A stretch of DNA of 64,000 nucleotides from IMG/VR virus record IMGVR_UViG_3300009285_016375, positions 10,508 through 74,507 of that record; one strand, written 5' to 3'. Below the pieces are notes generated by a model. That model was given only the letters and a program-made list of their open reading frames with translations, had not been told where the DNA came from and searched no databases. The stretch comes from a virus. The stretch's first letter is position 1. Each line of letters begins with the position of its first letter. Of the stretch, positions 43,601-60,666 are shown in pieces. The position numbers and the translations under genes were made by a program.

Positions 43601-46600
43601 GCGGGCGGCCTCGTCGCGGGACTATTGGGAGCAACGGATGGCCGACCAGGTTTCGCGTCAGCGCTTGCAGGAGCACTGGCGCCGACCGAAACGCAACGGC
43701 CCACCCCAGAGCGGGCTGCGCCGGGGGCGGATACCAGTCAGCCAGAGGTAGCTCCCGGCACGCCGCAACCGCTCACGGCTCAGGAGACCGCCGAGGCCGC
43801 CCGGCTGGGCGTGCGGGAGGTAACGGTCCAAACTGAGGCGGAGGCGCTGGCTGCCATCAATGGGCAACGCCAAGCTTCCGGGCAGCCAACCCAAGCAGCC
43901 CAGGGCACCGAGGGGGCACTGGCGTTCTACGACCACGGGGTCATTTACTATGTGCGCGGGCAATTGGACGATGACGCCCTGTTTCGCGAGGTGCGCGCCG
44001 AAGAGATCGGACACCACATTCTGTCCGGGCCACAAGCCCAAGAGGTGATCGGGCAGATAGCCGATGATCCGGCCTTCGGTGCCGAGATGGAAGGCATGGC
44101 GCAGAGGTATCCCCGGTTTGAGGGCGAGAGCGAAGGGGCTTACCGGCTGCGTTTGGCCAATGAGCTTTTGGCCCAGTCACGCCGGACGGACCGGAATCTG
44201 TTCCAGCGGTTGCTGGACTGGATTGTCGAGCGCCTGGCGCAATGGCCGGGCATGGGGGAGTGGATCAAGGGCAGCGCGTCCAATCGGCAGGGGATTCTCC
44301 GGGCCTTGATGCGGCGGGCCGAAGCGGGGTTCAGTGCGGCGGGACCGACGGCGCAGGCGATGGCTGCTACTATCAGCCCGCAACGGCAGGCCGAGATCAT
44401 CGCCGCCCAGGCCGAGGCGGACGCGGCCCGCGCGGGGGGCAGGGCCCAGGTGCCTGCGCGGGAAGCCACTTTGTTCCACGCGGCCCAAGTGCTGCGGCGC
44501 GGGGCGGAAGCCACCTTGCAGCTCTGGCGCCAGGCCGTGACCCGGCTGGACACCTTGCGGTATCACAACAAAGAGTATGTCCGGGCCAGGAAAACGCTGG
44601 AGGCGCTGCGCAGTTTCCTGCAGACCGAGTATCAGAAGCTGAGCCAGGGCGACAGGCTGGTCTTAAACCTGCCAGAAAAGGTGCCGGGGATTCTGGATGG
44701 TGAATTTGTAAATGCGCTGCAAACATTAGGTGTGGGCACGCGCTCAGCAGAGGCGGGAGCCGGCGAGTTCGTGATACCAGCGGATACCGAGGAGACGGCT
44801 GGCCGATTGAGCAGGCCCCCTGGACTCGGGGCGCTGGACGCAAACCGCATCCGGGCCCTACAGGCTGAGGTGCAGACCGAAAACCAGGCCCGCGGGTATG
44901 CCGCCCTGCTGCAGGAACAGGCCCGGTTGCGGGTGTGGCGGCGCTGGGGCACCCAGTTCGATTTGGGCGAGGAGTATCAGCAGGCCTGGGTGAGCCGGCA
45001 ACGGGCAGTGGAAGAGCGCATGAAACGGATCCGCCAGGGCAACCCGGAAGCGGCCCGGCGCGGCCAGCAGATGTCTCGGGACCGGATCACGCGCGGGGAA
45101 GTGGGAGAGTTTGACCAGGCCAGCGAAGAAACCTGGCTGTCCCGGTTGGGAGAGTGGCAGGCGCAACAGCGGGCTTACGAGTCCGGCCCGGTGCGGCGGG
45201 CCTTCCGGCAAGGGCTGGAAGGGGCGCGGGCCTTGGCCGATCAATGGCAGACGCGGCTGGCCACGTTTGAGGAGGCGATGGCGGATCCGACTATGCCGGA
45301 GGACGCCCGGCGCCGGCTGGCCGGGGAGGTGTTGGCCAGTTGGCGGCAGATGCAGGCTGAGCAGCAGCGCTTTGAAAACCTGTATGCCGGGCGGGCAGGC
45401 TTGTTGAAACAGATGCGCCAGCTCGAGGATCAGTTGGCCTCAGCCAAGATCACCCAAGGCGAGGCGGAAGGATTGATCGGCCGGGCCATAGCCGCCCTGA
45501 GCAGCGAAGCCGAGCGCGCTTGGGCGGTGATCCCCACCGGGCTGGAGCGGGTGTTGCTGGACAACGCCGAGGCCATTCGCTTGGCCGCCCGGCGGTTGGC
45601 TAAGTTGCCCGCCTGGCAGGGCACCCGCAACGCGCGGGCGGTGTTCGAGCGCTTGACCGAGCAGGGCCGGATTCTGCGGCAGGAACCCATGGGCCGGCCG
45701 GTGATGACCGGAGAACCTTTGGTGTTCGCCGCTGAGCTGGGGCTCTCCGAGGAGGCTTACACGGCCATGCTGTGGGCGCTCGAACATTCGGAGAGTTTTC
45801 GGGATGCCGTGGAAACGCTGGCCGAACTGGCGGATCAAAAGCTGGCCGAGGTGCCGGTGGTGCCGGTGCAGAGAATTGCCGAGTTGCTGGAGGCGGGCCA
45901 GGCAGAGCAGGCGCAAGCGGCTTTCGAGCAGTTGCGCCGGAAGCTGGGCAATCAAGCGGTGGCCGCCGAAAAGGCCCAGGCGCCCCTGACGCGCCAGTTG
46001 CTGAAACTGGCCGTGCAAGTGCGGGCGTTGGACCTGGGGCGCCAACTGTTCCAGGCTGTGCTGGGCGAGCCGGGCCAGCCTCAGGCGGAACTGACCCGCC
46101 TGGTGCGGCAGGTGATCGAGCTGACTCTGGATCATCCGCCCATGATCGAGGCCAACGGGGACGGGACGACCTACCACGCCTTTCCCGGGCAGCCGGCGGT
46201 GACGGTGCGGGCGGCCAGTTGGCTGAGCCCAACCAAAACGCAGCGGTCTGTCAGCCAGTGGTATGAGCAGGCCGCAGAGTATTTGGCCGGGTTCGAGGCG
46301 GCGGAACTGGCGCAGGCGGCTAATCCGGGTCAACCGACCGCCGAGCAGCAGGGCTACGATTACGGGGTGGTGCTGGGCTTGCGGGAGGCGCTGGAACAGC
46401 AGGACAGCGACACCAACCATGCCTTGTTGCTGGATGAGGATCGTTACCAGATGTCGCGCTGGCAGGGTTGGAGCCAGAAGTTCAGTTACGGCCAGCAGAT
46501 TTGGACCACCATCACCCATGCGGCCGGGCTGGGCCGCGGAGCGCTGCACCGCTGGGCCTTGGCGTTGGGGCGCGGCCAGGCCATCGGTTCGCGGTTGCTG

Positions 46601-49600
46601 AAGCGGGATTTTCGGGGGCGGCACGAGGCGCGCACCGCCGCCTTAGTGAGCCACCCGGAGTGCGAAAACAATCTGGAGCGTTACCAGTTGCTGGTGATGA
46701 ACCCGATGGGGCATTTGGGCCGGCAATGGGACAGTCCTTTGAGGGTCGGTTACGCGCTGGACAGCGGTTCGGTGGTGACCCGGGAAGACCTGGCCTTCCT
46801 GCGTTTGACCGAGCGCTTTGGCCAGGCGGTGCGACGGGAGATCACCGAGCAGGAAGCCGGCGAGCCGGGCCAGCGCTATCTGCGCGGGGGCGTGGAGCGC
46901 CAGCAGGGCGGTCAAGTGGTGAGCCGCAGCCTGAGTCTGGGCGTGGGCGACTACGCGCTGGCCCGCGTGCTGAACTGGGGCGGTTTTCTGAACGCGCTCC
47001 GGGAACTGGCCGCGGCCTATCACGGCCCGGACCACAAGCTGCAAAGCGTGGGGGCGGAGACCAATTTGCGTTTGACTCAGGAACCCGCGGCCCTGGAAGC
47101 GGCGGCCGGCTGGCGGGTGGCGGCCTTTTGGAACGAGCACCTGGCCGATCTGGTGCGGCACGTGAGCGATGCCGGGCGGACCGACAGCGCGGTGTCCCGG
47201 CAGCCGCCTCTGATGCGGGCCGCCCTGGAGTTGCGGCGGCGTTGGGAAGTGGGCGAAACGGGCCGCCCGGCTGATTTGCAGGAACTGGTGGAACAGTTGA
47301 CGGCCGCCTTGCCGGTCAATTTCGATCCGGGTGTGCCGCGCGCCCGCTATGTGCGGGAGCAACTTTTGGCGGAACTGGCCGAGTATGGGCGCGGGGCGCT
47401 GGCGGCCGAGCAGGAAGTGGTGGCAGAAGTGAAGCGGGCCAGCGCCGAGGCGGAGTATGACCCGGTGCGCGTGTTCAAGAGCGAGTTCACCCAGGAAGCG
47501 GCCCGGCTGCGCCTGCCCTCGCGCTGGTATAACTACGGGGCAGTGCGGGAAGGGGAGTTCCATGACCTGGTGGCCCGGGCCTTGAGCGAGCGGGCCATCC
47601 AGTTCCGGGCGGCCTTGGACCGGACCGTGGATGGCATGCAAGCCCTGCGGGCTCAGGCGCGGGACGTGAGCCAGCCGGTGGCCTTTGAGTCTGCGCAATA
47701 TCCCGATCTGCACAATTTCAGCCGGGCGTTGGCCAACTTGGAACGGCTCCAAGACCAAATGAAAGCCGCCGGGACCGCGCGGTTTCGGGAGCCGGGTTTT
47801 TGGCAGGAATTGTTTGGGTTCTTCCAGGGCGGGCTGTTGTCCGGGGTGGACGTGGGTTTTGGGAACGTGATTCTGAACGCGGGTTTTGCCGGCTGGGTGC
47901 TGGCGCACTTGCCGGGGCAAACCCGGCGGATGACGCTGGGCCGGGAGCTCGCCGGCTTGTTCCGGGGCGGGCTGGTGCTGGTGAATAATGTGCTGGAGCA
48001 TACCGAGACAGGGCGCGCGCTGCGCCGCTTGTGGCCGGCCAGCCTGCGCGGGTTTTTGGCCGAGCAAGGGGCTTTGCTGGAGGAGGTGCAGCGGCTGGGC
48101 TTTTCGCACCGAGAACCGTTTCTGGCCGAGGCGCGGCGTTTGTGGCAACAGGCGCTTGAGTTTCGCGGCACGGAAGAGCAGCAGGAAGCCACGGCCTGGA
48201 GCCAGGCGGGCCGGCGCGTGCGGGCGGTGCTGCGGCTGGGATCAGCCGCCTTGCGCAAGGTGGGAGCCACCGCCTTGGGCGACTTGGCCACCAACGCCAC
48301 TCTGGTCGGGCAGGCCGGCATGGTGGCGGATGCCGTGCGGTCGATGGCCGGGCGTTACCAGGCGCGGGATTTGAGCCAACCCTTTAACGCGGCTGATCCT
48401 CTCTGGCAGGTCAGCGAAGCCGATGTGCCACACGCTTGGACGGCCCAAAGGAGCCAGCGCCTGGCTCTGTTGCGCCTGATTTTCGAGCGGGCCGACGTGA
48501 GTTTAGAGCGGGTGCTGTATCGCTACTCCAAGGCCGCTCAGGCCGCCGCGCGCACGGGCGGGGAAAGCCCCGAAGTCTTCACGCCCGAGGAGCACGAGAA
48601 ACTCAAGTTTGCCCTGCTGGCGTTGCTGAACCAACCCACCAGTGTGAGCCGGCAGTTCAAGGCGCAGTACGACCGGACGTTCAAGTTTTTGGTGACGTTC
48701 CAAGGTTGGGTGGCAAACGCCGCCAATACCTACGCCGAACTGTATCAGCAGACCGGGCGCACCCGGTCGCTGCCGCCGGCCGCGCGGGCCGCCACGCATT
48801 TGCTGCCGTTGCTGGGCACCACGCTGCTCTTTGCGCTGGTGTTTGGCAGCATCAACCAGTGGTGGCGGCGCAAGGTGAAGAAGCATCTTTACGGCATTGA
48901 CACCCAGGTGGCCAGCATTTTGGAACGGGACACTTGGTCCAGCCCCGGCACGGCGTTCCGGGGCGCGGCCGTGGGCACGCTGTCGGCCTTGCCGATTGCC
49001 GGCGATCTGGCGCTGAACTGGCTCAACGCCACCGTGGGCGGGCGGGGGTTTGATCCCGCCTCACGGGTGGTGGGCTTGAACCTGATGAGCAGCATATTCT
49101 CAGCGTTCCGGGCCGCGGCCGGCCAGCCCTGGCCAGATAAGTGGATGATCCTGACCGATTTCATGGTGCGCCCGCACTTCGGGCTGAGCGGGCCGCTGCT
49201 CTATGCCGGCAGTCCGCGCTACCGCGGGCAGCGGGAGGTCTCGAATGTGCGCCGGTTGATCGAGGACAAGGCCCACACGGTGTTGGGCATCGAACGGCGC
49301 CGGAGCGGCCAGCGCTGGGCCGGCAGCGATTTATCCCCGACCTACGCGATGCGGATGAAGATGGCCAGCGCGGCGGTGCGGGAGGATTGGGAGGAGTTCG
49401 GGCAGCAAAGCCAGCGGCTGGTGGAGTGGCACCGCCAAGCGGGGGCCGCCGAGCCGGCAAAAGCCGCCTTGCGCGATTTCCAGGCCATGCACCCGGTGGC
49501 GCGCGGGGCCGGACGCAAGCTGGAGGCCGAGGAATTTGCCCGGATCAGCAGCGCCCTGAGCGCCAGCCAGCGCCAGCAGGTGGACCACGCCAGGCAGGCC

Positions 49601-49990
49601 TGGGCGCAAGGCGAGACCCTCTTGGGCGCCGCTCAACCACGCAGCGCCATCCATGAAGCCCGCCCGGCCGGCCGGGCGGGCGGAGGAGGAGGGGGAACAG
49701 GAACGGGCGGGCAGGGCTGGGACGGCGTGAAACGGGTGCCAGCGCTGAGCGGGCAGAGCGGGCGCGGGCGGCGATTTGGACGCTTGGCCAGTCCCGTGCC
49801 GCGGGTGTTATCGACCCGGAGCGCGGTGTCCGTGGCCAGCCGGGTGGGCCGATCCTCCCGGCGTTGGGCGGGCCGGGTGCCGCCGATGAGCCTGAAATCA
49901 CCCCGCCTGCGCGCGCCCAAAATGCGGCGTGCGCGCGGGGCGCGGCTGCCGAGATGGCCGCGGGGCACGGGCCGGGTGCGGATTTATTGA
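40619..49990 (+). CDS. Giant internal virion / polyvalent protein (3123 aa)
   Basis: Gly/Ala-rich N-terminus with EEAAQ motif, ART-like insert, degenerate metallopeptidase EEIGH, hydrophobic C-terminal region and Arg-rich tail. Confidence 0.75.
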   Translation: MGYKIIEPEPVLGRYRVIEPETNRPRYRVIEPDQLITPMGTPETPDDYSIPAEVGKGIVRGLARGVAAVPRFGGDVADAVRRWVGSSPEAPGPLDTAIGGRKSALSLLGDVIDETVAEALPARKPESFWLGVVPEAIGQVVPMAGAGLGAGLARKGAGLAAQMSAATAASTAVGFMAEFDDAFQRETERQQKAGENDPDLAFVKALNYGTIAAALEGRFGAGRLARKWVERFGGESINELAKRGVSGGMIGRFLGRTAGDAATQGLEEAAQRLAQNVIIEGPLLPPEKLMEGIGTEGGAGAVVGTLLGFPANIPRRGRIPVQRMPSRLPPESLAPGHVQSEALVELGVGPAPDERGRIPITTGNQYAIQKPSPAALPVGQTPQAGAPVEPDEETTGKDTGGVAPVWTPQATAAARQALRGNLQGRTVNVPQEQWAAPSVHLQYLFGAQAPTWNDLVAAGVLELTDPAAPAAPGDLGVRLKREQPANAPTEPAPAASPSLKVWKAGQTGIGRGGMQYFALSKELADKFSEGGEFGRPGAVVTETQLPEGSMVFDWKASTPEERIELKASSWIEPDGYPNWHWFENTPGIQAKLRELGYNGIKLSEGESNGLSIAILPESKPAAPAAVKAGELQGAVPPEAQPPELMTPDYSAPSVTQDFSPAPAPATANVTQLSDATMRPSAPRTADPGTGPTPSQQAAATGAGVILHNEQPEIELQLDELAQSIPFDPAATIAGPVWQDVSGQDFSSAESQRTLLAGARAEGVGGGGSRQATQQSHRLVVLTNRQDGSRHAASVYGSHRRVFATDPATGQGVPLDTLLPKWQPTHWFYSGPARNRYRLALSPAHFAALRAQGEAHQQKLDSYEAPSEVTGPAVPSEEGEEGEEGEGLPAKPKPSARKPIAEETKLGQVVASADLTFTLAQAEELHELLAWRPGDSEQDIRDALADNATARPVKNLLIAVSDKFYRNEYKALAAITDPAAKPAAKDAFDATVADRAGGLVAGLLGATDGRPGFASALAGALAPTETQRPTPERAAPGADTSQPEVAPGTPQPLTAQETAEAARLGVREVTVQTEAEALAAINGQRQASGQPTQAAQGTEGALAFYDHGVIYYVRGQLDDDALFREVRAEEIGHHILSGPQAQEVIGQIADDPAFGAEMEGMAQRYPRFEGESEGAYRLRLANELLAQSRRTDRNLFQRLLDWIVERLAQWPGMGEWIKGSASNRQGILRALMRRAEAGFSAAGPTAQAMAATISPQRQAEIIAAQAEADAARAGGRAQVPAREATLFHAAQVLRRGAEATLQLWRQAVTRLDTLRYHNKEYVRARKTLEALRSFLQTEYQKLSQGDRLVLNLPEKVPGILDGEFVNALQTLGVGTRSAEAGAGEFVIPADTEETAGRLSRPPGLGALDANRIRALQAEVQTENQARGYAALLQEQARLRVWRRWGTQFDLGEEYQQAWVSRQRAVEERMKRIRQGNPEAARRGQQMSRDRITRGEVGEFDQASEETWLSRLGEWQAQQRAYESGPVRRAFRQGLEGARALADQWQTRLATFEEAMADPTMPEDARRRLAGEVLASWRQMQAEQQRFENLYAGRAGLLKQMRQLEDQLASAKITQGEAEGLIGRAIAALSSEAERAWAVIPTGLERVLLDNAEAIRLAARRLAKLPAWQGTRNARAVFERLTEQGRILRQEPMGRPVMTGEPLVFAAELGLSEEAYTAMLWALEHSESFRDAVETLAELADQKLAEVPVVPVQRIAELLEAGQAEQAQAAFEQLRRKLGNQAVAAEKAQAPLTRQLLKLAVQVRALDLGRQLFQAVLGEPGQPQAELTRLVRQVIELTLDHPPMIEANGDGTTYHAFPGQPAVTVRAASWLSPTKTQRSVSQWYEQAAEYLAGFEAAELAQAANPGQPTAEQQGYDYGVVLGLREALEQQDSDTNHALLLDEDRYQMSRWQGWSQKFSYGQQIWTTITHAAGLGRGALHRWALALGRGQAIGSRLLKRDFRGRHEARTAALVSHPECENNLERYQLLVMNPMGHLGRQWDSPLRVGYALDSGSVVTREDLAFLRLTERFGQAVRREITEQEAGEPGQRYLRGGVERQQGGQVVSRSLSLGVGDYALARVLNWGGFLNALRELAAAYHGPDHKLQSVGAETNLRLTQEPAALEAAAGWRVAAFWNEHLADLVRHVSDAGRTDSAVSRQPPLMRAALELRRRWEVGETGRPADLQELVEQLTAALPVNFDPGVPRARYVREQLLAELAEYGRGALAAEQEVVAEVKRASAEAEYDPVRVFKSEFTQEAARLRLPSRWYNYGAVREGEFHDLVARALSERAIQFRAALDRTVDGMQALRAQARDVSQPVAFESAQYPDLHNFSRALANLERLQDQMKAAGTARFREPGFWQELFGFFQGGLLSGVDVGFGNVILNAGFAGWVLAHLPGQTRRMTLGRELAGLFRGGLVLVNNVLEHTETGRALRRLWPASLRGFLAEQGALLEEVQRLGFSHREPFLAEARRLWQQALEFRGTEEQQEATAWSQAGRRVRAVLRLGSAALRKVGATALGDLATNATLVGQAGMVADAVRSMAGRYQARDLSQPFNAADPLWQVSEADVPHAWTAQRSQRLALLRLIFERADVSLERVLYRYSKAAQAAARTGGESPEVFTPEEHEKLKFALLALLNQPTSVSRQFKAQYDRTFKFLVTFQGWVANAANTYAELYQQTGRTRSLPPAARAATHLLPLLGTTLLFALVFGSINQWWRRKVKKHLYGIDTQVASILERDTWSSPGTAFRGAAVGTLSALPIAGDLALNWLNATVGGRGFDPASRVVGLNLMSSIFSAFRAAAGQPWPDKWMILTDFMVRPHFGLSGPLLYAGSPRYRGQREVSNVRRLIEDKAHTVLGIERRRSGQRWAGSDLSPTYAMRMKMASAAVREDWEEFGQQSQRLVEWHRQAGAAEPAKAALRDFQAMHPVARGAGRKLEAEEFARISSALSASQRQQVDHARQAWAQGETLLGAAQPRSAIHEARPAGRAGGGGGGTGTGGQGWDGVKRVPALSGQSGRGRRFGRLASPVPRVLSTRSAVSVASRVGRSSRRWAGRVPPMSLKSPRLRAPKMRRARGARLPRWPRGTGRVRIY

Positions 49991-50035: not shown

Positions 50036-50440
50036 TTGTCGAACGACGTCATAGAGGTTCATGGTTCGAGGGTGCAGGTGACGCGTCAGGCGCTGGCCGC
50101 CGCCCTGGCCGAGGAACTGGAACGGGCGCTGGCGGGGTATCGGCCCTGCGCGTTGCTGCCCGCTTTCGTCTGGCGCCGCATTGCCAAGGCGGCGGTGCGC
50201 GCGCTTTTGCAACTGATCACGGAGTTCATTGGCCGCGGCCAGCCCATCGCGCTGCCGGGGTTCGGCTCCTGGCGCTTGATGCGGCGGGCGGCGCATCTGG
50301 GCACCTGCCCGGCGGCTTGGGGGCCGCACGGCCACCCCGCGCAGCGCGCCGAGCGCTATCTGGTGCCAGCCCACACCAAGGTGGTGTGGCGGCCGGCAGA
50401 GCGGCTGCGGCAGCGGTTGTTTCGGGTACAGGTGGAGTGA
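50036..50440 (+). CDS. HU/IHF-family DNA-bending protein (divergent)
   Basis: ITEFIGRGQPIALPGFGSW...RAAHLGTCP...VPAHTKVVWRPAERLR matches the HU core. Confidence 0.8.
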   Translation: MSNDVIEVHGSRVQVTRQALAAALAEELERALAGYRPCALLPAFVWRRIAKAAVRALLQLITEFIGRGQPIALPGFGSWRLMRRAAHLGTCPAAWGPHGHPAQRAERYLVPAHTKVVWRPAERLRQRLFRVQVE

Positions 50441-50468: not shown

Positions 50469-50792
50469 GCCACAGCATTCGCCAAGTTGTTTGGTTGCTG
50501 CGAGGCGGCGCTCGTGACCGAGCCGAGCCGATGGCAGGCGCCCACAGCAATAAAGTCGCTTGGTTGCTGCGAGCAGTTCGGCGCCAGTAAGGCGGATGCC
50601 GCGCAGCGTCCCCACAGCATTCACCAAGTTGTTTGGTTGCTGCGAGGACGGTTTCCGCTGAAATGTCATGGCCCAGCAGGTCAGCCCACAGCATTCGCCA
50701 AGTTGTTTGGTTGCTGCGAGGACGGAGCGGGCCTCGTCCACTTCGGGGTTCATTTGCCCACAGCATTCGCCAAGTTGTTTGGTTGCTGCGAG
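50469..50792 (-). CRISPR. CRISPR mini-array: 5 repeats, 4 spacers of 36-38 nt
   Basis: Repeat CCCACAGCATTCGCCAAGTTGTTTGGTTGCTGCGAG (36 nt, + strand) at 50469, 50541 (33-nt variant), 50611, 50685, 50757; unique spacers; the most degenerate copies are distal to the effector gene. Confidence 0.92.
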
Positions 50793-50912
50793 GGCGGTGC
50801 CTGGGCAGGCTGTATCCTCGCGCTTGCAAACCGCGTTCCGCGAGTGCCTGGGCCGGCAAGCGTGCCCAACCAGACTCGCGCTGCGCTTTGTGGTAGCGCA
50901 AAGAATTGATTA
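50793..50912 (-). ncRNA. Structured leader / candidate tracr- or scaffold-like RNA
   Basis: Hairpins CGCGAGT...ACTCGCG and TGCGCT...AGCGCA; 50815-50831 is partly complementary to the repeat. Confidence 0.5.
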
Positions 50913-52154
50913 TCACGGCTCGCGAGCGGTGTCAAGGCTTTCCACCGCACCGGCGCACTCGCAAGCCATCCCAAACTCACGCAGCTTGTTGGCCAGCATG
51001 ACCTGCAACTCGTGCCAGGGAAACTCAGGCAGATAACCGCCTTGAGTTTCATCATAGACAACCGTGTTGACGCCTTGGCGCTGAGCGAACTTGGCCAAGG
51101 CTGAGCAGGATTGCTGCATGAAAGATCGGACCCGACGATGATGCTTGGCCACTTGCGCCTGGCGGTATTCTCCCAACCGCGGCGGTTCGCCCAAGCGGAC
51201 CTCGTATTTTGAGTCGTCGGAAAGCCGGTCCAACTGCCGGCGATGAGCAGCGATCCAGCGGCGGACGTGATCAGCGTGCAAGCGCCACGGTTCCCGCCCT
51301 TCCACCTCGGCGATCCAGAAAGCATCCGGCGCCCTGCTGAGCACCAGCCGGCGCTGAACCGGGGCCGGGCGCTGCGGTTTGGGCAGCCACGCCACCAGCT
51401 TGACCATCACGTCGTAGCACTGGCGGGCGCCGCCACCGGCTGCCCGGTCTGGCAAGCCAGGCCGATGGGTGTTGCCAGAGACCCTTTTGCGGTAGAGGGC
51501 CAATTCGCCAGGCACGGCTTGGCCACTGACAATCTGCTCGAAGGCACCCAGTTGGCGGCGGAAGCCTGCCCCACCCCGCAACCGCAAACTGATGCGCTCG
51601 CCGCCCAAACGCACTGAGACCACGGGCACGCGTTCGGTGTCCGAGAGCCAGCGCGCTTGCCAGGAGGCGTTGTGGGCGGGGTAGGGAACCGGGTAACGGA
51701 ACCAGGGCAGGGTGGCGCTGCCCGACCAGATGGTGGCCCAGCGGGCGGAGTTGTATTTCTGTTGGGCCATTCGGGAAACGGCCGCCGCGGCTTGGCTTTC
51801 CATGTCCGGCCGCCGCTCACGAGCGATCTGATAGACGTTCAGCTTGGGGGCGGGCGGGAGCTTGGTCAGGCTGGGTGAGCGCACCACGTCGGCCTTGGCC
51901 AAGGCGGTCAGCACGGTGTTGGCCACTTCGGTGGCTTGAGCCCAGGCCGCGCCCAAGCGGGCGCGGAAGGCCGGCCAGTCCAGGCCGATGGGTGAAGCCA
52001 CCGGGAAGGTGACGGCCCGCAGAATGTAGGCATGGCGCCAACAGGTCTGGCACCAAGGCTGGTCCTGATGGCGTTTCCAGCCGGCGGGCACGCGCTGGCG
52101 CCCGGCTTTGGTGGGTTTGGCGGCGGCTTCCCGGCCGCACAGGTGGCATTTCAT
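50913..52154 (-). CDS. Nuclease-dead, C-terminally truncated TnpB/Cas12-like protein with N-terminal Zn ribbon
   Basis: Bridge-helix/RuvC-II-like HHRRVRSFMQQSCSALAKFAQRQGVNTVVYDE...FPWHELQVMLANKLREFG; RuvC-I Asp absent, no RuvC-III; adjacent to the CRISPR array. Confidence 0.78.
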   Translation of the reverse strand: MKCHLCGREAAAKPTKAGRQRVPAGWKRHQDQPWCQTCWRHAYILRAVTFPVASPIGLDWPAFRARLGAAWAQATEVANTVLTALAKADVVRSPSLTKLPPAPKLNVYQIARERRPDMESQAAAAVSRMAQQKYNSARWATIWSGSATLPWFRYPVPYPAHNASWQARWLSDTERVPVVSVRLGGERISLRLRGGAGFRRQLGAFEQIVSGQAVPGELALYRKRVSGNTHRPGLPDRAAGGGARQCYDVMVKLVAWLPKPQRPAPVQRRLVLSRAPDAFWIAEVEGREPWRLHADHVRRWIAAHRRQLDRLSDDSKYEVRLGEPPRLGEYRQAQVAKHHRRVRSFMQQSCSALAKFAQRQGVNTVVYDETQGGYLPEFPWHELQVMLANKLREFGMACECAGAVESLDTAREP

Positions 52155-53095
52155 AGCAGATGTCCGGTGAGTTTCTGCCGGCCTTCTTGGGCCAGGGGGG
52201 CGCGCACGTAATCCAGGCTCTGCCGCGGGCTGGCATGGCCCACTAAAGCAGCAATCTGTTCCGGGCTCAAGCCCGCCGCGCGGCAGTGCTCAATAAAGGT
52301 GGCCCGCAGATCGTGAATGTTCAGATGCAACAGGCCCAGTTCGGCGCGCAGTGCCCGGAATTGCAGGCGCAAGGCTTTGGCCGGCACGCGCCGCACCCGT
52401 TCCGGGAAGACGAAACGCTCGCCGTTGGCCCCGTTGGCCCGCGGGATGGCTTGCAGGATAACCGCCAGAGGCGGGGCCAATGGAATGACCACGCGCTGGT
52501 GCTGCCGTTTCTTGGTCCAGACCGTGATCGTCCCAGCCTCCAGATCCAGGCTGTCCCATTCCAGGCATTGGACGTCCGAGGGGAAGCGCAAGCCCGCGTG
52601 GACGCAGAGGGCCAAGGCCGCCTGCCAAAATTCCCAGCGTTCCAGCCGCTGCCCGGCTTGGGCGCACTGGCCGGCGGCTTGCTGGGCGCGAGCGCGATCT
52701 ATCCGGGCCTGGATGGCGGTGAAGAGGGCCTGCACCTGGGCCCGGCTGTAGGTGCCACGGGGGCGACTTTCGCGCAGGGCATGGGGCAGGGCCTCCAGGC
52801 GCAACTTGCGGAAGCGGGCGGGGTTGCCGTGCAGGAGGCCGGCGTCGCCGAGAAAATCGCACCAGTGTTGCAAGGCGGCCTTGCAGATCTGGCGGGTGGC
52901 CGCTTTCCAGGGCAGGGCGGGGTCCTCCAGGAAAGCGCGCACGCTGGGTTTTGTGATGTCCGAGAGCCGGGACGGCTGGGTGCGAGCCAGATACCAGCCG
53001 ACGTAGTTGGTGTAGATTTGGGCGGTGGAGGCGCGCACGTCGCCTTCCTGTTGCAGGTGGTCGGTCCAGCGTGCTAGGGCGTTCAGGGGTTTCAT
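52151..53095 (-). CDS. Tyrosine recombinase/integrase (not IntI type)
   Basis: Core-binding domain (ASTAQIY...GNPA) and full catalytic set GLR, K, HDLR, VGH, Y; start moved to MKPLN. Confidence 0.93.
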   Translation of the reverse strand: MKPLNALARWTDHLQQEGDVRASTAQIYTNYVGWYLARTQPSRLSDITKPSVRAFLEDPALPWKAATRQICKAALQHWCDFLGDAGLLHGNPARFRKLRLEALPHALRESRPRGTYSRAQVQALFTAIQARIDRARAQQAAGQCAQAGQRLERWEFWQAALALCVHAGLRFPSDVQCLEWDSLDLEAGTITVWTKKRQHQRVVIPLAPPLAVILQAIPRANGANGERFVFPERVRRVPAKALRLQFRALRAELGLLHLNIHDLRATFIEHCRAAGLSPEQIAALVGHASPRQSLDYVRAPLAQEGRQKLTGHLL

Positions 53096-53102
53096 CGCGG
53101 GT

Positions 53103-53122
53103 GCTGAGCTGGGTCGTTCGGC
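53103..53122 (+). other. attC-like right half-site at the attI-equivalent position
   Basis: GCTGAGC-TGGGTC-GTTCGGC, identical to the right arm of 55493-55579, 7 nt upstream of the integrase ATG. Confidence 0.7.
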
Positions 53123-53123
53123 G

Positions 53124-53381
53124 TCAGATAATCCTCGCGCAGGCTTCGGACTCCGCGAGTGCGACAGCATCGTCAAGCGAGTCAGGTGCGGGAAAGACAC
53201 CTACTCTCAGGAAGTTACCTTCCCGCGCGTACCAGTGTCCGGTTTTGACGGTTTTGCCGTCCGCAGGCTCCCAGCCGGGGAACGTATTGCGAATCGCATC
53301 ACGCGGGGTCATTGCCGCAATGGTCTTGCTTTCTTGCACATGTCCGATCCGGTAGTCTTGCAGTTGCACTATGTATGTCAT
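53124..53381 (-). CDS. Cassette ORF, hypothetical
   Basis: MTYIVQLQDY...; stop abuts the attC half-site. Confidence 0.6.
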   Translation of the reverse strand: MTYIVQLQDYRIGHVQESKTIAAMTPRDAIRNTFPGWEPADGKTVKTGHWYAREGNFLRVGVFPAPDSLDDAVALAESEACARII

Positions 53382-53399
53382 ATTGTCTTTCCATTGCCC

Positions 53400-53487
53400 G
53401 CCAAACAAGACACTGGAGCGGACGGCGGGGGGCCGCTTCAGCGAGCGGGGCGTTACGGGCGCCGCCGCTCAGTTCGGGTCGTTCGGC
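53400..53487 (+). repeat. attC-like site A
   Basis: GCCAAAC...ACTGGAGCGG...CCGCTCAGT...GTTCGGC, extra base in L''; 65 bp identical to site B. Confidence 0.85.
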
Positions 53488-53488
53488 G

Positions 53489-53692
53489 TCACACCTTGCC
53501 ATGCTTCCCGGACTCGTCGGAGATGTCAGCGTTGACCGCTGCACTCAGATTGCTGTAGCTGGGCAAGCGGACCGCGCCCGGTCCATCCGGTATCGGAGAC
53601 AGGTAGTGCGTTGTCCCGTCCTCGTAATCGCGGCGGATGATTTTCCGGGAAAAGTGGTTTAGCTGTCCGGTTTCGGTGTCGGTATGAGTCAT
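53489..53692 (-). CDS. Cassette ORF, hypothetical
   Basis: 67 aa, lies exactly between sites A and B with a purine-rich RBS region. Confidence 0.65.
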   Translation of the reverse strand: MTHTDTETGQLNHFSRKIIRRDYEDGTTHYLSPIPDGPGAVRLPSYSNLSAAVNADISDESGKHGKV

Positions 53693-53711
53693 TTTTCTTT
53701 TTCTTTCCCCC

Positions 53712-53799
53712 GCCGAACAAGGTCACTGGAGCGGACGGCGGGGGGCCGCTTCAGCGAGCGGGGCGTTACGGGCGCCGCCGCTCAGTTCTGTCCTTATGC
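53712..53799 (+). repeat. attC-like site B (R' G mutated to C)
   Basis: GCCGAAC...ACTGGAGCGG...CCGCTCAGT...CTTATGC. Confidence 0.8.
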
Positions 53800-54029
53800 T
53801 GATCGGCGTCCATCGCGGCGGCGATCAGCTTGAGGTCTGCGTGGTGAATTTGCCTCGCTGCAAGTTCCTTGCGTTCCCTGGGTCTCAGGGGTCGCGGCTC
53901 GCACAGCGATCCGTCGGGGCGCACGGGGTAGGCTGTGCCCCCGTCTTCCGGTGTCACGATCGTTGCCCATTCACCACCGGCAAAGTGCGTCCATCCTTCT
54001 TTGAATGTTGGTGCGTAAAGATTTAGCAT
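53766..54029 (-). CDS. Cassette ORF, hypothetical
   Basis: ATG lies in R'' of site C; C-terminus reads into site B. Confidence 0.6.
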   Translation of the reverse strand: MLNLYAPTFKEGWTHFAGGEWATIVTPEDGGTAYPVRPDGSLCEPRPLRPRERKELAARQIHHADLKLIAAAMDADQHKDRTERRRP

Positions 54030-54116
54030 AACAAGTCGATGCAGGCAACGGCGGGTGTGGCCTGCGGTGTCAATCGTGCGTCTCAGGTCCGCCGTGCCTG
54101 ATCTCGGTCGTTAGCC
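54026..54116 (+). repeat. attC-like site C (canonical)
   Basis: GCATAAC-AAGTC-GATGCAGGCA...TGCCTGATC-TCGGTC-GTTAGCC. Confidence 0.9.
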
Positions 54117-54326
54117 GACTACCTCTTTCATGGCCTTGAGAAGCGTTGAACCTTTTCCTTCGCAGCCGTCCGCTGCCCATATTTCAACGGCGGGCTGGCC
54201 CATGTTCGGCCAGCCCTTAATTGTGACCGTTGTTCCTTCGGCGGTCTTTCCATTGCACCACGCGAAGAAGTCGGCTAACAAGGCGCTGGGAGTTGCGGGC
54301 TTCGTTGGCGCGTTTTTCTTTTTCAT
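54111..54326 (-). CDS. Cassette ORF containing a residual attC left arm
   Basis: Stop TAA lies in R' of site C; GGCTAACAAGGCGCTG at 54273 is inside the frame. Confidence 0.6.
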   Translation of the reverse strand: MKKKNAPTKPATPSALLADFFAWCNGKTAEGTTVTIKGWPNMGQPAVEIWAADGCEGKGSTLLKAMKEVVG

Positions 54327-54369
54327 AGTTTCTTATTGATCTTTCATTTTTCTCTTTCTTGCCGGGAGC

Positions 54370-54472
54370 GCCTAGTTCGGCGCTCCAGCGAACGGGAGAG
54401 AGCCGTCACGGGTTTGGGTTTTGGGTTGTCTCAACGGCGGCTCTTTCCCGTCGTTGATCTCTGTCGTTCGGC
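54370..54472 (+). repeat. attC-like site E (degenerate R'')
   Basis: GCTCCAGCGAACGGGAGAGAGCCG...CGGCTCTTTCCCGTCGTTGATC-TCTGTC-GTTCGGC. Confidence 0.75.
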
Positions 54473-54643
54473 GCCATTTGCCTTGAGTCGCTCGACATAT
54501 TTTGCCAGCGACTCATACACTTCAGCTTCGAGCACGATCCGGTTGCGCGGGTCGTCAGGGTAGCCGTTTTCAGTCGTGAGCACGAGGCCGAAGCCGTCGA
54601 AGTCCACATGCACACTGTCACCGAGGTATTGCTTGTTGTTCAT
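54431..54643 (-). CDS. Cassette ORF, conserved small phage protein
   Basis: YLGDSVHVDFDG...LTTENG...NRIVLEAEV motif; ends inside site E. Confidence 0.7.
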   Translation of the reverse strand: MNNKQYLGDSVHVDFDGFGLVLTTENGYPDDPRNRIVLEAEVYESLAKYVERLKANGAERQRSTTGKSRR

Positions 54644-54692
54644 ATCACTCTGTCGTTAGCGCATCGGTTCAAGGCCGCACTCGGCTCCACCG

Positions 54693-55061
54693 TCATAGCA
54701 TCGCGCCGGTTAGAGATTCATTCAGGCCGATTTCTTGGCGCGTGATTACTGCCGTAGCTTCATCGGCGCGACGGGTGTGCTTCCACCTTGTTTCGCAGGA
54801 CTCACACTGCGCCCAGAGTATCGCGCCCCAGTCAGAGTGCCAGGCCCGCGAGCCGCAGGTTGGGCAGGCGAACACGTGGACGCATAACAAGACGCCACGG
54901 ACTACCGTCGCTGAGCTTGGGTCGTTCTGGCGCAGAGCGGCGCGCTTGGCTGTTCGGGCGCGCACCATTGCCCGCGCTTGGGCTTTCGTGAGCTTGCGGC
55001 GGGACTTCTGACCGCCCTTGCGCCCGATGTCCGCCAGATACTTTCGTGCTTCCGGGTTCAT
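54693..55061 (-). CDS. Fusion ORF: basic GRKGG module, translated attC remnant, Zn ribbon
   Basis: IGRKGGQKSRR then QNDPSSATVVRGVLLC (attC remnant 54882-54930) then CPTC...CESC. Confidence 0.6.
   Translation of the reverse strand: MNPEARKYLADIGRKGGQKSRRKLTKAQARAMVRARTAKRAALRQNDPSSATVVRGVLLCVHVFACPTCGSRAWHSDWGAILWAQCESCETRWKHTRRADEATAVITRQEIGLNESLTGAML
54882..54930 (+). repeat. Short degenerate attC-like site inside an ORF
   Basis: GCATAAC...GTCGCTGAGC-TTGGGTC-GTTCTGG. Confidence 0.6.
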
Positions 55062-55186
55062 GCTTTGATGGCGTATTCGCCGTCAGCGCGGACTTCAAAC
55101 CAGCGGCGGACACCGCCACGTTTCACGGCGGGCGTGTAGATGGTCGCCGTCTTGTAGTAGCGGACTTCCCCGCCGAACAAGGTCAC
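55058..55186 (-). CDS. 42-aa ORF starting inside attC-like site F
   Basis: GTG at 55186 overlaps the upstream stop (GTGA); its stop overlaps the next ATG (ATGA); MTLFGGEVRYYKTATIY... Confidence 0.55.
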   Translation of the reverse strand: MTLFGGEVRYYKTATIYTPAVKRGGVRRWFEVRADGEYAIKA

Positions 55187-55264
55187 TGGAGCGGACGGCG
55201 GGGGGCCGCTTCAGGTTGATGGGGTTGCTCAGTGGCCCGCCGCCGCTGAGTTCTGTCGTTCGGC
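55172..55264 (+). repeat. attC-like site F
   Basis: GCCGAAC...ACTGGAGCGG...CCGCTGAGT-TCTGTC-GTTCGGC; left ~45 bp identical to site B. Confidence 0.85.
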
Positions 55265-55584
55265 GTCACTCGCTCCCGGCATGTTCGTTCGTCTTTACGG
55301 TCGCCACCGAACGGGATGCTGTCTTCCCAGTCCACCGCTATTTGATCGAGCTTTTGCACTTCATGCGCGCAAACTGCGGACGGGCCGCTGCCATCTGTTC
55401 CGGCACAGCGTTCCGCTTCTTCTTCCGCCAGTCGTTGGTTATCGGCAACTATCATCAACTCATACTCGACGGTTACACGCCAGAGACGTAACGCCGAACC
55501 AGGCGCTCCAGCCAATGACTGTCCCGCTGGGCGGTCGGACAATTCGGGAGTCTGGGATGGCTGAGCTGGGTCGTTCGGCGTCAC
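55183..55584 (-). CDS. Cassette ORF that reads through two attC-like sites
   Basis: N-terminal 30 aa come from site G, C-terminal 27 aa from site F; the cargo has no stop of its own. Confidence 0.6.
   Translation of the reverse strand: MTPNDPAQPSQTPELSDRPAGQSLAGAPGSALRLWRVTVEYELMIVADNQRLAEEEAERCAGTDGSGPSAVCAHEVQKLDQIAVDWEDSIPFGGDRKDERTCRERVTPNDRTQRRRATEQPHQPEAAPRRPLQ
55493..55579 (+). repeat. attC-like site G
   Basis: GCCGAAC-CAGGC-GCTCCAGCCA...TGGCTGAGC-TGGGTC-GTTCGGC. Confidence 0.88.
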
Positions 55585-55775
55585 AGTCCGTAGTCATAGC
55601 TTTCGCCGGTTTTCGGGCCGCGCGTGCAGCGCAACACGAAGGTGTAGTTTCGACCGAGCTTGCGCTCGATGTCGCGCGCTGCTGCCGAGTTGAGGAACCG
55701 CTGCGGTTGCGTCGTCTCGTGAACGAGTTGACCGCGATAGGTGATCTGCCAGTGGTTTCGCATTTTGGTTTTCAT
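55581..55775 (-). CDS. Hypothetical protein
   Basis: MKTKMRNHWQITY...; stop abuts site G. Confidence 0.55.
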   Translation of the reverse strand: MKTKMRNHWQITYRGQLVHETTQPQRFLNSAAARDIERKLGRNYTFVLRCTRGPKTGESYDYGL

Positions 55776-55855
55776 GGTTAGCTGCCTCAGTCCACCGCGT
55801 AGAGACACGCTTGGCCGGCTGGTATCGGTTCAAGGCCGCACATTTTGTCTTTGGG

Positions 55856-56194
55856 TTAGTCAGTCCTCGACCTGATGAACTGAGCCCGTGCGGCGGGCGT
55901 GTTCTCCAGGTTTTCCCGGCCCAACCAGGCGAAATAATCCGCAATGGACACCAGCACGAACTCCACTCGCGCCCCGCGCTTGCGCAACTCGCGGGCAAAC
56001 GCCTGATTGATCAGCTCCTGCTCGCGCAAGCTCAAGTCCGGCTCCTCGGACTTGAGGAAGCGGAGCGTGTCCTCGTCGTCGTAAGCGGCCACCCGCACCC
56101 GCACCCGCACCCCGGGCAATTGGTGGGGCAGGTCGAGTTGCGCGCAGATCTGCGCGGCCCGAATGCGAGCTTGTTTCCAGGTCATGTTTGTCAT
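55856..56194 (-). CDS. Hypothetical protein
   Basis: 112-aa ORF in the minus-strand operon. Confidence 0.6.
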   Translation of the reverse strand: MTNMTWKQARIRAAQICAQLDLPHQLPGVRVRVRVAAYDDEDTLRFLKSEEPDLSLREQELINQAFARELRKRGARVEFVLVSIADYFAWLGRENLENTPAARAQFIRSRTD

Positions 56195-56463
56195 TTTACC
56201 GCCGGCGCCTGCGGGAACAACCCGCCGCAGGCATTGGCCGTGAGGAACAGGCCCACCTCGACCGGCAACCCCACAAACCCCATCACGCCCGAGGGATCCT
56301 CGGGCTGATGGACATGGACCGTCAAGTTCCCGTCAGCCACCAGGCTGCAGGCGCCGGCCAGGTCGTAACCGTGCCGGGCGCTTGCGTCCCGGATTTTCGC
56401 GGCCAGGTTGTGGGCCGCCACGGCAAAATCCCGTTGCTCGGCGCTCAGCTCGATCTCTTCCAT
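56191..56463 (-). CDS. Hypothetical protein
   Basis: MEEIELSAEQ... preceded by AAAGAAGAA; ATGA overlap downstream; start uncertain. Confidence 0.5.
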   Translation of the reverse strand: MEEIELSAEQRDFAVAAHNLAAKIRDASARHGYDLAGACSLVADGNLTVHVHQPEDPSGVMGFVGLPVEVGLFLTANACGGLFPQAPAVK

Positions 56464-56584
56464 CAACCGTTCTTCTTTGCACATACCTTTATGTTTCTCT
56501 TGCGACTTTCCGGGTCGCGTCCGGGGCAGCTTCATTGCTCCGTTGGACCGCCGCACATTGCGGCGGCCCCGTCGGAAAAATGAG

Positions 56585-57091
56585 TCAGGAAAGGGGCCGC
56601 GCTCCGACGAGCGCGGAAAACTTGTCACTGCGCCAGCCGTCTGGCTGGCCCCGGCTGCAATCGCCGGCATTTTCGCCGGGGCCCAGGAACACGACCCGCT
56701 CGGCGCCCGCCCGGCGGCAGTGCGCCGCGGCTGTCTCGGGTGTAGGCCAGGAGCCAGGCAGGGTGCGGGTGCCCCCGTGAATGTCGAGCGCGCACGTGAA
56801 CCGCCCGTTCTCCGCGCGCACCACAGCGATGCGCCCATAAACCCAGCGATGCTCGGGGGGCGGCGCGAAAAGGGCATCCGCCAGCAGCGGCCCCAGTTCG
56901 GGCAGCCGGCGCGCCAGGAACTCGGTCGGGTCCGGCACGTGTTGCGCCAGCCAGGCCGTCAATTCGGGCAGTTTTTGGGCCAGCGTACTGGCCCGGCTCT
57001 GCCAGCGATTCGCCCGGCCTGGCCCGGCCCAGAACGTGACGTGCAACAGCCGGCCCGACGGCGCTCGTGTCGATGCGACCTTGACGCTCAT
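56585..57091 (-). CDS. Hypothetical protein
   Basis: ATGA-coupled to the VWA gene. Confidence 0.55.
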   Translation of the reverse strand: MSVKVASTRAPSGRLLHVTFWAGPGRANRWQSRASTLAQKLPELTAWLAQHVPDPTEFLARRLPELGPLLADALFAPPPEHRWVYGRIAVVRAENGRFTCALDIHGGTRTLPGSWPTPETAAAHCRRAGAERVVFLGPGENAGDCSRGQPDGWRSDKFSALVGARPLS

Positions 57092-58347
57092 GCGGCCTCC
57101 TCGATTTTGACCGTGCGCCCGAACGGCGCCCGGCGGTCGCTAGTGGTCACCCAGAGCACCGGGTAACCCGGCTCCTCAGCCGGGAACTCCCCGTCCAAAT
57201 CCGTCAGGTACACCAGACAGACCGGCGGCACCGCCTTCTCCGCCAACAACCCGAACACCGGCCTGAAATCCGTTCCGCCGCCGCCCGTCGCCTGCCGCTC
57301 AATCGCGTCGCCCGGGCAGTACTCGCGCACCTGCTGCACGACCGCGTCGCAGCAGATGTCCACGAGTGCCTCGGGCTGGAGCTCGTCCAGGCACCACTGC
57401 TGCTCCGCGCGGAACGCGGCCAACAAGTGCTCGCCGATGCTGCCGGACGTGTCCACGGCGAACACGATCCGCCCCGCCCGCTCCGAATGGAGCGCGGGCA
57501 GAATGAATTCCGCGTCCGCGTAGCGCGTGTTCGGCCGGCACCAGGACCAATCGTCCTGGGCGCGCTCCCGGAGGAAATCCCGGAGCACCGCGCGCCAGTC
57601 CACCCTGGGCCGGGTCAACTCGCGGACCAACCGCACCAGGCTGGCTGGCACATGCCCGCGGCCCTTGGCCAGTTCGGCCGCCTGCTGGGCGGCCTGCGCC
57701 CACTCCTGCCGGAGCTGCTCCGCCTCGGCCTGGCCGTCCTGGCTGGGCTGCTCCATCTCACCCGGGGAGGGCTGGCCATCGCCGGGCTGATCGCCCGCGA
57801 CCGGATCGGCCTGAGCCGACTGAGCCGACTGATTACCGGCCCCCGCGCCGGCCTCCCCGCTCTCACCGTCGCCGTCGCCGCTGTCTTCAGCCGGCGGCGG
57901 CACCTCGGCCAGGAGCGTGCGGTAAATGGCCTCGACCGCGAGGCCCTTAAACCGGGCCTCAACCGGCTCCGCGCCGGGCGCGGCGGGAAACGTCTCGGCG
58001 CCGGCCTCCTCGAGGATCGCGCGCGCCTCCTGGTCACAGGCCCGGTTCCAGACCCGCCAATCCGCGGCGGCCGGGGCGCGCCAGATGTGCCCGAGTCCCA
58101 TGTGGAGGACCTGCTCACAGAGCACGGATGTGATCTGTGCGTCGCTCAGCGACGCGCAATACTCCGGGTTGACCCGCAGGTCAACCCCATCCGAGGAGAA
58201 TGTCTCCACGGCGGGTGACTCCGACACTGTGAGCCGGAGTGCCAGGCAGGCGAAAAACGGCTCGAACCGGACCAGCCGGCTGAGCTGGCGCTCGATCCGA
58301 ACCACCTGACTGGTGGCCGGGGTCGGCTTGAGGAGGGGTGCATTCAT
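57088..58347 (-). CDS. Metallopeptidase-like plus VWA-like protein (DUF2201 type)
   Basis: EPFFACLA, SDG.DL..NP, EQVLH (degenerate HExxH), WNRACD, VDWR..LR, AVDTSGSI, GGGGTDFRPVF, YLTDL. Confidence 0.88.
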   Translation of the reverse strand: MNAPLLKPTPATSQVVRIERQLSRLVRFEPFFACLALRLTVSESPAVETFSSDGVDLRVNPEYCASLSDAQITSVLCEQVLHMGLGHIWRAPAAADWRVWNRACDQEARAILEEAGAETFPAAPGAEPVEARFKGLAVEAIYRTLLAEVPPPAEDSGDGDGESGEAGAGAGNQSAQSAQADPVAGDQPGDGQPSPGEMEQPSQDGQAEAEQLRQEWAQAAQQAAELAKGRGHVPASLVRLVRELTRPRVDWRAVLRDFLRERAQDDWSWCRPNTRYADAEFILPALHSERAGRIVFAVDTSGSIGEHLLAAFRAEQQWCLDELQPEALVDICCDAVVQQVREYCPGDAIERQATGGGGTDFRPVFGLLAEKAVPPVCLVYLTDLDGEFPAEEPGYPVLWVTTSDRRAPFGRTVKIEEAA

Positions 58348-58673
58348 GCGGCCACCTCCGTGAGCGCTGCCGCGACCAGCTTCGCCTGGTCGCGTTCCGA
58401 GAGAACTATCTCGGAATTTCGGCTGGTGTGGATCACCACACAGCCGGCGGCCGTCTGCCGGACGGCCGGGTCGGACCAGCGCCGCGGCGGATACCCGTTC
58501 CATTGTCCCTTGCGGTTTTTCACCCACTCCATCTGATCAATGGCGTGGTCAGCCCCGACGGCCCACTCCGCGTGCGCGGAGATGTAGCAGCTCCGCACAG
58601 CCTGGTGGTACTGCTCCGCCAGCCGGAGCAGCTCCATGTCCGCCATCGGCGGGAAAATAGCGGGGGTGCTCAC
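58344..58673 (-). CDS. Hypothetical protein
   Basis: GTGA/ATGA overlaps with both neighbours. Confidence 0.6.
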   Translation of the reverse strand: MSTPAIFPPMADMELLRLAEQYHQAVRSCYISAHAEWAVGADHAIDQMEWVKNRKGQWNGYPPRRWSDPAVRQTAAGCVVIHTSRNSEIVLSERDQAKLVAAALTEVAA

Positions 58674-59659: not shown

Positions 59660-59772
59660 GAGGTCACCGCCTTCCGGCTAGGAGTTGTTGTTGTTGTCTT
59701 CATGCGTTTTGTTTTTCGTGGGCCGTTCGCGTTGGCCCGTTTTTTGGGTTTTGGTCGCTTGGTCGAGCGGCG

Positions 59773-59970: not shown

Positions 59971-59989
59971 ATTTCCCTTTCTGCCGGAC

Positions 59990-60330: not shown

Positions 60331-60349
60331 GTTGACTTTCTTCCGGGAC

Positions 60350-60475: not shown

Positions 60476-60476
60476 G

Positions 60477-60647: not shown

Positions 60648-60666
60648 TTGCGTTTTTCTTTCCCCC

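Follow-up and report, generated by a model that had tools for sequence, protein, structure and literature searches.

A probable nuclease-dead Cas12f-like effector encoded with its own scaffold RNA and CRISPR array in a phage genome

In a 64,000-nucleotide stretch of viral DNA (hereafter the window; positions 10,508 to 74,507 of IMG/VR record IMGVR_UViG_3300009285_016375, a 74,507-bp single-contig virus record), we identified a gene for a 413-residue Cas12f-like effector (50913..52154, minus strand). On the same strand it is followed by a predicted trans-activating CRISPR RNA (tracrRNA)-like scaffold of ~108 nt (50793..50901) and then by a CRISPR array (50469..50792). We consider it likely that this phage-borne effector, with its cis-encoded scaffold and array, is an RNA-guided DNA binder that does not cut. 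The gene assignment draws on the open reading frame (ORF), its homologues, a family profile, and an AlphaFold 2 (AF2) model. From its N terminus, the protein is predicted to comprise a zinc ribbon (residues 1–42), a WED/REC region (~43–260), and a remnant of the RuvC domain (~266–405), and it has neither the TNB zinc finger nor the RuvC-III motif.

The effector ORF cannot be dismissed as a chance reading frame because it has 76 homologues of ~360 to 480 residues, with E values down to 7e-116, and because a profile built from 67 relatives retrieved 752 clusters (50% identity) of ~400- to 440-residue proteins at E < 1e-30 among 1.84 billion proteins. None of the 76 homologues carries a precomputed Pfam domain, and searches of the effector protein against Pfam (E up to 1), NCBIfam, and PHROGs returned nothing usable. 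A phmmer search of the PDB with the single effector sequence found no match, and only the family profile reached Cas12f. A truncated pseudogene was also considered and rejected, as length, motifs, and fold are conserved throughout the family. For the analyses below, 73 related loci (designated by L numbers) were drawn from metagenome-assembled genomes (MAGs), IMG/VR, and metagenomes. They were gathered with a 12-sequence alignment, and residue counts were taken from the alignment of the 67 relatives.

The family profile matched OsCas12f (E = 3e-8), SpCas12f1 (E = 9e-8), and AsCas12f (E ~7e-6) in the PDB, as well as the sigmaE-type "nuclease-deactivated Cas12f" 9n9c (dCas12f), in a single segment at E = 5e-4. 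An AF2 model computed on the family alignment (pLDDT 93.1, pTM 0.86) had AsCas12f as its top Foldseek hit (E = 2e-17), with dCas12f 9n9c at E = 2e-14. In VIA-align superpositions, model residues 43–405 fell on residues 0–367 of AsCas12f (Z 25.1, root-mean-square deviation (rmsd) 4.5, 328 residues), the alignment stopping at residue 367 of the 416 to 424 residues of that nuclease. Model residues 37–401 covered the entire 365-residue dCas12f (residues 1–365; Z 23.2, rmsd 4.4 over 329 residues). Other type V-related proteins scored lower: TnpB 16.8, Cas12k ~15.5, Cas12m 11.5 to 12.8, and Cas12o 12 to 13. On this model, the body of the effector is a Cas12f fold that ends where the published dCas12f ends and to which a zinc ribbon has been added. 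The WED, REC, and RuvC parts of the TnpB/Cas12f fold are thus all recognizable in it, at miniature size.

The zinc ribbon has the form CxxC-28-CxxC (codons 1–42; 52029..52154, minus strand), with C3-x2-C6 and C35-x2-C38 as the cysteines, kept in 63 to 66 of the 67 relatives. It is a family-specific feature to which nothing aligns in AsCas12f or dCas12f, the structural superpositions beginning only at model residues 37 to 44. An initial annotation, made from the sequence alone, had placed these four cysteines within residues 3–38, where we found them, and had read the protein as a dead, compact RNA-guided effector whose architecture matched no recognizable type V subtype. The first part of that reading stood, the miniature RNA-guided type V assignment being supported by the Cas12f fold, the neighboring CRISPR array, and a conserved scaffold of its own. 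The second part did not survive the structural comparison, in which similarity to the WED/RuvC fold was looked for and was present: Cas12f was a clear match (Z 25.1), above TnpB (16.8) and Cas12m, and dCas12f (Z 23.2) showed the same truncation. What remains unmatched is the zinc ribbon of residues 1–42.

The D-E-D triad of catalytic Cas12f RuvC domains is not present in the effector. The RuvC-I strand reads RRLVLSR (residues 268–274), and in a hidden Markov model alignment to OsCas12f, the RuvC-I aspartate of the GVDMG motif lies opposite S273. Among the 67 relatives, this column holds arginine in 47, serine in five, and aspartate in none. The second motif reads VVYDE (residues 365–369), in which D368 lies opposite the RuvC-II glutamate and is an aspartate in 52 of the 67 relatives. 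The lack of GxD at RuvC-I and the VVYDE reading at RuvC-II were both as first annotated. The third motif is absent because the protein ends first: the chain stops exactly 15 residues past NKLREFGMAC, in keeping with the ~15 originally estimated, and relatives end 38 to 99 residues past the YDD motif, at most 60 in all except six. No C-terminal TNB zinc finger (PF07282) is present, and a CxxC occurs within the last 90 residues in three of the 67 relatives only; in the longest outlier, of 580 residues, the tail is of low complexity and holds no finger. The structural alignment and the 67 relatives therefore agree with the initial annotation that the TNB-type finger and RuvC-III are missing, and since both are lacking across the family, the shortened C terminus is a lineage trait rather than a local truncation. 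Judged from the sequence, the absence of the RuvC-I aspartate, RuvC-III, and the TNB finger would be expected to abolish cleavage.

The candidate scaffold extends from shortly past the effector stop codon to the first repeat. Its order, 5' to 3', begins with a P1 hairpin (loop ACCRCNA) and a P2 stem around P3 (loop ACGCUUGCC), and continues with an invariant CUCG, usually within CUCGCGGAAC, a variable anti-repeat hexamer ending in GG, AUA, P5, CnGCC, and the repeat. In an alignment of 15 loci, 86.7% of the cells at predicted pairs were paired, as against 36 to 43% when the partners were slid by one to three columns. The covariation score was 0.577 versus ~0.1, and two-sided changes were seen in 27 of 33 pairs. 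The RNA is assigned to the strand of the gene because its G-U pairs work only in the gene-sense orientation and because the sense strand has the better folding z-score (−2.6; antisense −0.7). A covariance model detected the scaffold with a repeat in 51 of 57 sources, always on the strand of the gene with the exception of one inverted second array. Rfam had no family for the scaffold/array region, and a scan of promoters and terminators gave nothing above shuffled sequences.

Two segments of the scaffold covary with the repeat. The anti-repeat hexamer before AUA is complementary to the 5' end of the repeat (89% paired, four compensatory pairs), as is the P1 loop to the 3' end (98% paired, compensatory changes in all four pairs). 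For both, complementarity was higher between scaffolds and repeats of the same locus than between mismatched loci, with a value not attained in any of 5,000 permutations (p < 0.0002); pairing of the P1 loop with the hexamer was not significant in the permutation test. The tracrRNA of Cas12f is known to pair with the repeat in two separate segments, and a comparable two-segment repeat:anti-repeat arrangement is the one favored here, since the repeat ends pair more cleanly with the scaffold than with each other. The terminal columns of the repeat form Watson-Crick pairs with the scaffold, with one of 60 cells unpaired; paired with each other, they give many G-U pairs and leave eight of 60 cells unpaired. 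The anti-repeat segments of a Cas12f tracrRNA are recognized here by covariation only.

The array comprises five 36-nt repeats, one of them degenerate, and four spacers of 36 to 38 nt, all on the minus strand: R1, 50757–50792; R2, 50685–50720; R3, 50611–50646; R4, 50541–50573 (the degenerate copy, 33 nt); and R5, 50469–50504. Tandem Repeats Finder reported a period of 74 with 3.5 copies, and the five copies lie 69 to 74 nt apart. The spacers are unrelated to one another and to the rest of the phage genome; with at least three near-identical repeats, regular spacing, and unique spacers, the element has the makeup of a CRISPR array. Arrays with 36-nt repeats stand directly 3' of the gene in 20 nonredundant related loci, the first repeat lying 111 to 132 nt past the stop codon in 16 of them; an adjacent array is likewise a feature of Cas12f systems. 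The sequence of the repeat varies among loci, and that of the window was not found elsewhere in IMG/VR. The shape of the repeat is constant: its two ends are complementary and enclose a short inner stem.

Comparison of sister loci points to spacer turnover. Scaffold and repeats are the same in L037 and L067, as are three distal spacers, and the scaffold-proximal spacers differ. This pattern suggests that spacers are still being acquired, with acquisition polarized at the scaffold end. In addition, a spacer of L034 overlaps, on the opposite strand, a spacer common to L037 and L067, as would be expected from repeated sampling of one target, and this overlap argues for a DNA target. The twice-sampled L034/L037 site was not present in IMG/VR, either by exact search or by a search that allowed for codon degeneracy. 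Neither cas1 nor cas2 occurred among the 25 most frequent of 49 neighbor families, and adaptation would have to be supplied by the host. The array of L002 gave only chance-level matches to its MAG. In two loci, a spacer is duplicated within one array (L009, at 9485 and 9634; L017, at 5028 and 5100).

The scaffold-array unit itself takes several forms. In nine of the 17 loci examined (L001, L006, L007, L027, L033, L052, L030, L025, and L018), the scaffold is followed by one repeat and no second repeat, and these loci look like natural single-guide forms. Three such single-guide-like loci lie in MAG contigs of 3.8 Mb, 395 kb, and 83 kb, from Planctomycetaceae, Bryobacterales, and Luteitalea. Other loci have two scaffold-array units: in L041 (7545 and 9227) and L057 (6977 and 9959), they flank the effector gene on both sides, two units are likewise present in L020, L012, L045, L051, and L035, and in L034 the second unit is inverted.

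Together, these features suggest a self-contained module derived from type V-F, in which a dead miniature Cas12f gene would be followed immediately by its scaffold, with the array joined to the scaffold 3' end and all three read from the strand of the gene. The scaffold would pair with both ends of the repeat, through the anti-repeat at the 5' end and the P1 loop at the 3' end, and so yield a Cas12f-style guide RNA. The effector would load this guide and bind DNA complementary to the spacer, which it should be unable to cut, since another residue stands in place of the RuvC-I aspartate and the chain has neither TNB finger nor RuvC-III. Once bound, the complex may form a roadblock in the path of transcription or replication. 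Its likely target would be DNA of competitors or DNA under phage control; with the silencing of rival elements, the control of host genes, and self-regulation as conceivable roles, the spacer turnover makes us lean towards rival mobile elements or host DNA, including host genes. What we infer from the computed features of the locus is that the protein loads RNA, binds DNA, and does not cut it, together with its biological target and any dimer formation.

A number of results weigh against this reading. First, the searches for targets came back empty: the window spacers had no match longer than 15 nt in their own phage genome; none of the four gave an exact 24-mer match in IMG/VR; 118 spacers of related loci had no cross-match of at least 18 nt when compared with all loci; and the single guides of L001, L006, and L007 had no second site in their own MAGs beyond chance (at most three mismatches per 20 nt). 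Second, the repeat can fold end to end, and covariation cannot separate such folding from pairing between scaffold and repeat. Third, an acidic pair, D368/E369, is retained at RuvC-II, where most relatives read YDD, and the ADHVRRW motif (residues 294–300), specific to the family, is nearly invariant; by sequence, there is a small chance that the two form a rearranged catalytic site.

If the effector binds without cutting, it could still act as a recruiter instead of a roadblock, with the truncated RuvC face docking a sigma factor or RNA polymerase and switching targets on, as in the sigmaE-dCas12f systems. That mechanism is established in Bacteroidota (PMC13472631), the truncation point of our effector is identical to that of the sigmaE-type dCas12f, and the two superimpose over the whole length of the latter (Z 23.2). 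Proteins with a Sigma70_r2 domain, one of them an extracytoplasmic function (ECF) sigma factor, were encoded within 3 kb in two of ~35 related loci. In the window, however, the effector has no sigma gene close by, and comparison across loci brought out no conserved partner. Moreover, arrays are mostly gone from the published systems but are kept, with spacer turnover, in the present family, whose sequence is no nearer to 9n9c (E = 5e-4) than to active Cas12f (E = 3e-8). We therefore regard recruitment as unlikely.

Nor do we give much weight to the view that the protein is still a nuclease, working through a rearranged site (for example D295/H296 with D368/E369) or through a host protein that completes the site in trans, which we judge quite improbable. 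In its favor, 52 of the 67 relatives have an aspartate at the RuvC-II position and 54 have one after it, ADHVRRW is near-invariant, conserved catalytic rearrangements are known in TnpB/Cas12 (PMC10691335), and host thioredoxin has been reported to activate a miniature Cas12 from a phage (bioRxiv 10.1101/2025.01.20.633832). On the other side, the beta-1 aspartate that RNase H-like nucleases need is an arginine in most members and a serine here, and the RuvC-III helix and TNB domain are absent in every member examined.

The setting of the module is that of a phage. Tail-spike and virion-structural PHROG matches lie elsewhere in the window, and 19 relatives sit in IMG/VR contigs; related loci in MAGs are labeled Planctomycetota, Acidobacteriota, and Saprospiraceae. 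Clustering of neighbors across the related loci revealed no conserved protein partner. A Pfam scan of 149 neighbor ORFs from ~35 loci recovered portal (three), large terminase (two), YqaJ (two), RecT (one), Phage_integrase (two), and Sigma70_r2 (two). Because no neighbor is conserved and the phage genes nearby are varied, we regard the dead-Cas12f module as autonomous, riding in different phages.

Immediately upstream of the effector, on the same strand, lies a gene for a tyrosine recombinase of the phage integrase family (52151..53200, minus strand), whose TGA stop codon overlaps the effector start codon as ATGA. On the far side of the array, and convergent with it, lies a gene for an HU-like DNA-binding protein (50036..50440, plus strand). 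Neither the recombinase nor the HU-like protein has a homologue in any of the 73 related loci, and the recombinase link is local to the phage of the window. The overlap would suit a scheme in which the effector is an RNA-programmable site selector for the recombinase, giving CRISPR-guided integration or recombination distinct from the Tn7- and Mu-type CRISPR-associated transposons. We find such a scheme very hard to credit: besides the absence of the window recombinase from all related loci, a Phage_integrase domain was encoded within 3 kb in only two of ~35 other loci, and the repeated intergenic elements headed by the recombinase (see below) offer it another role. A complex prediction for effector and recombinase returned a score of 0.00 ("no answer"), which weighs neither for nor against binding. 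Just as implausible is a decoy or biomimetic anti-CRISPR, in which guide RNAs belonging to a host Cas12f system would be sequestered by the dead effector; the protein is phage-encoded and catalytically dead, and the same mode of action has been proposed for a phage Cas9 with a dead RuvC (PMC10910872), but the scaffold covaries with the repeat of its own locus, and the family's own arrays are kept, with spacer turnover.

Several further observations concern the surroundings of these genes. Between small ORFs at 53098–60686 of the window, an intergenic element recurs that has the core GTCGTTCGGCG and the inverse CGCCGAAC, which often form imperfect palindromes. A longer direct-repeat motif of this element occurs five times and shorter forms several times more, and the 65-nt copies at 53411 and 53724 are identical. 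The repeated stretch is headed by the tyrosine recombinase, whose ORF has the first copy at its 5' end and whose real substrate these elements may be. Small-ORF clustering around the related effectors produced artefacts, namely reading frames antisense to the gene and translated scaffold and array sequence, barring one ORF of ~228 residues with four distant members (L010:9547–10239, L018:4279–4959, L026:4006–4689, and L050:1321–1899). This ORF is not found in the window; it sits at, or a few hundred nucleotides past, the 3' end of the effector gene and may be a subclade-specific partner. Elsewhere in the window, an ORF of 3,123 residues with no Pfam match at E ≤ 1e-4 (40619–49990, plus strand) ends ~50 nt before the HU-like gene, and a DUF2201 metallopeptidase/VWA-like gene (57088–58527, minus strand) adjoins one for an AAA/MoxR-like ATPase (58670–59659, minus strand), a pair that looks conserved.

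If the proposed reading of a noncutting, array-programmed binder is correct, phages of several bacterial phyla of soil and water, to go by the MAG labels, carry such a protein of ~410 residues with a scaffold of ~108 nt. The biology of dead Cas12f would then extend from a sigma-coupled activator of Bacteroidota to a large phage-borne lineage. Spacers in this lineage still appear to be renewed, with no adaptation genes encoded by the lineage itself, which raises the questions of who supplies adaptation and what the phages silence. In practical terms, the effector is a candidate compact chassis for CRISPR interference or effector fusions that would need no inactivating mutations, and the covarying scaffold-repeat pairs are a starting point for the design of single-guide RNAs.

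Inactivated relatives of Cas12f have been described before. The sigmaE-coupled dCas12f of Bacteroidota is naturally dead and C-terminally truncated and carries out RNA-guided transcription (Hoffmann et al., Nature 2026, PMC13472631; PDB 9n9c/9n9m). A single sentence and a single extended-data panel of that study mention a separate dCas12f cluster beside CRISPR arrays, with guide RNAs predicted by covariance upstream of the arrays (PMC13472631). Altae-Tran et al. reported inactivated branches in Cas12f and in several V-U groups, as well as tyrosine recombinases linked to inactivated TnpB (PMC10691335). The present family may correspond to that array-linked dCas12f cluster (PMC13472631) or to one of those V-U groups (PMC10691335). 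What is new here is the covarying scaffold, the tracr-like pairing, the spacer turnover in sister loci, and the absence of a conserved protein neighbor.

With the sigmaE dCas12f, our family has in common the Cas12f fold, the dead RuvC, the same C-terminal truncation without TNB and RuvC-III, and a structured scaffold 5' of the guide. Unlike those systems, it has no operonic rpoE partner (an ECF sigma with a C-terminal domain extension), it is phage-borne, and it adds a zinc ribbon; and where they have a single chimeric guide RNA and have mostly lost the array, an array is present here and in most relatives, and spacers change within the family. The type V-F nucleases are its best matches (Z 22.7 to 25.1, profile E 3e-8 to 8e-6, for AsCas12f 8dzj/7wju/8j12, OsCas12f 9nzq, and SpCas12f1 9i8y) and resemble it in miniature size and association with arrays. 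They differ in having the D-E-D triad, the TNB finger, and DNA cutting, whereas the present family is without RuvC-I, RuvC-III, and TNB and has its scaffold joined directly to the start of the array instead of in a separate gene. The missing triad and TNB thus place the family outside the V-F nucleases, and the retained arrays and lack of rpoE place it outside the sigmaE group. TldR proteins are likewise miniature, RuvC-dead, C-terminally truncated RNA-guided binders, some of them prophage-encoded (bioRxiv 10.1101/2023.11.30.569447; PMC13622181). They are TnpB-derived and use an omega-RNA-type single guide without arrays; our effector, by contrast, is nearer to Cas12f than to TnpB (Z 25.1 versus 16.8) and has arrays.

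In the 2025 classification, types V-C and V-M are demonstrated to be binding-only and V-O and V-P are predicted to be so (PMC12669027). Cas12m (V-M) and Cas12c (V-C) come closest to the function proposed here, that is, CRISPR RNA-guided DNA binding that blocks transcription without cutting (PMC12669027, PMC11013384). Structurally, Cas12m and Cas12o are far from the effector (Z 11.5 to 12.8 and 12 to 13, respectively) and are larger, at ~520 to 670 residues in the chains compared, and inactivation in the binding-only Cas12m/Cas12c and in the present family arose independently. To our knowledge, binding-only effectors of the Cas12m/Cas12c type use no tracr-like scaffold. By analogy, the family described here would work most like a Cas12f-derived counterpart of Cas12m and Cas12c.

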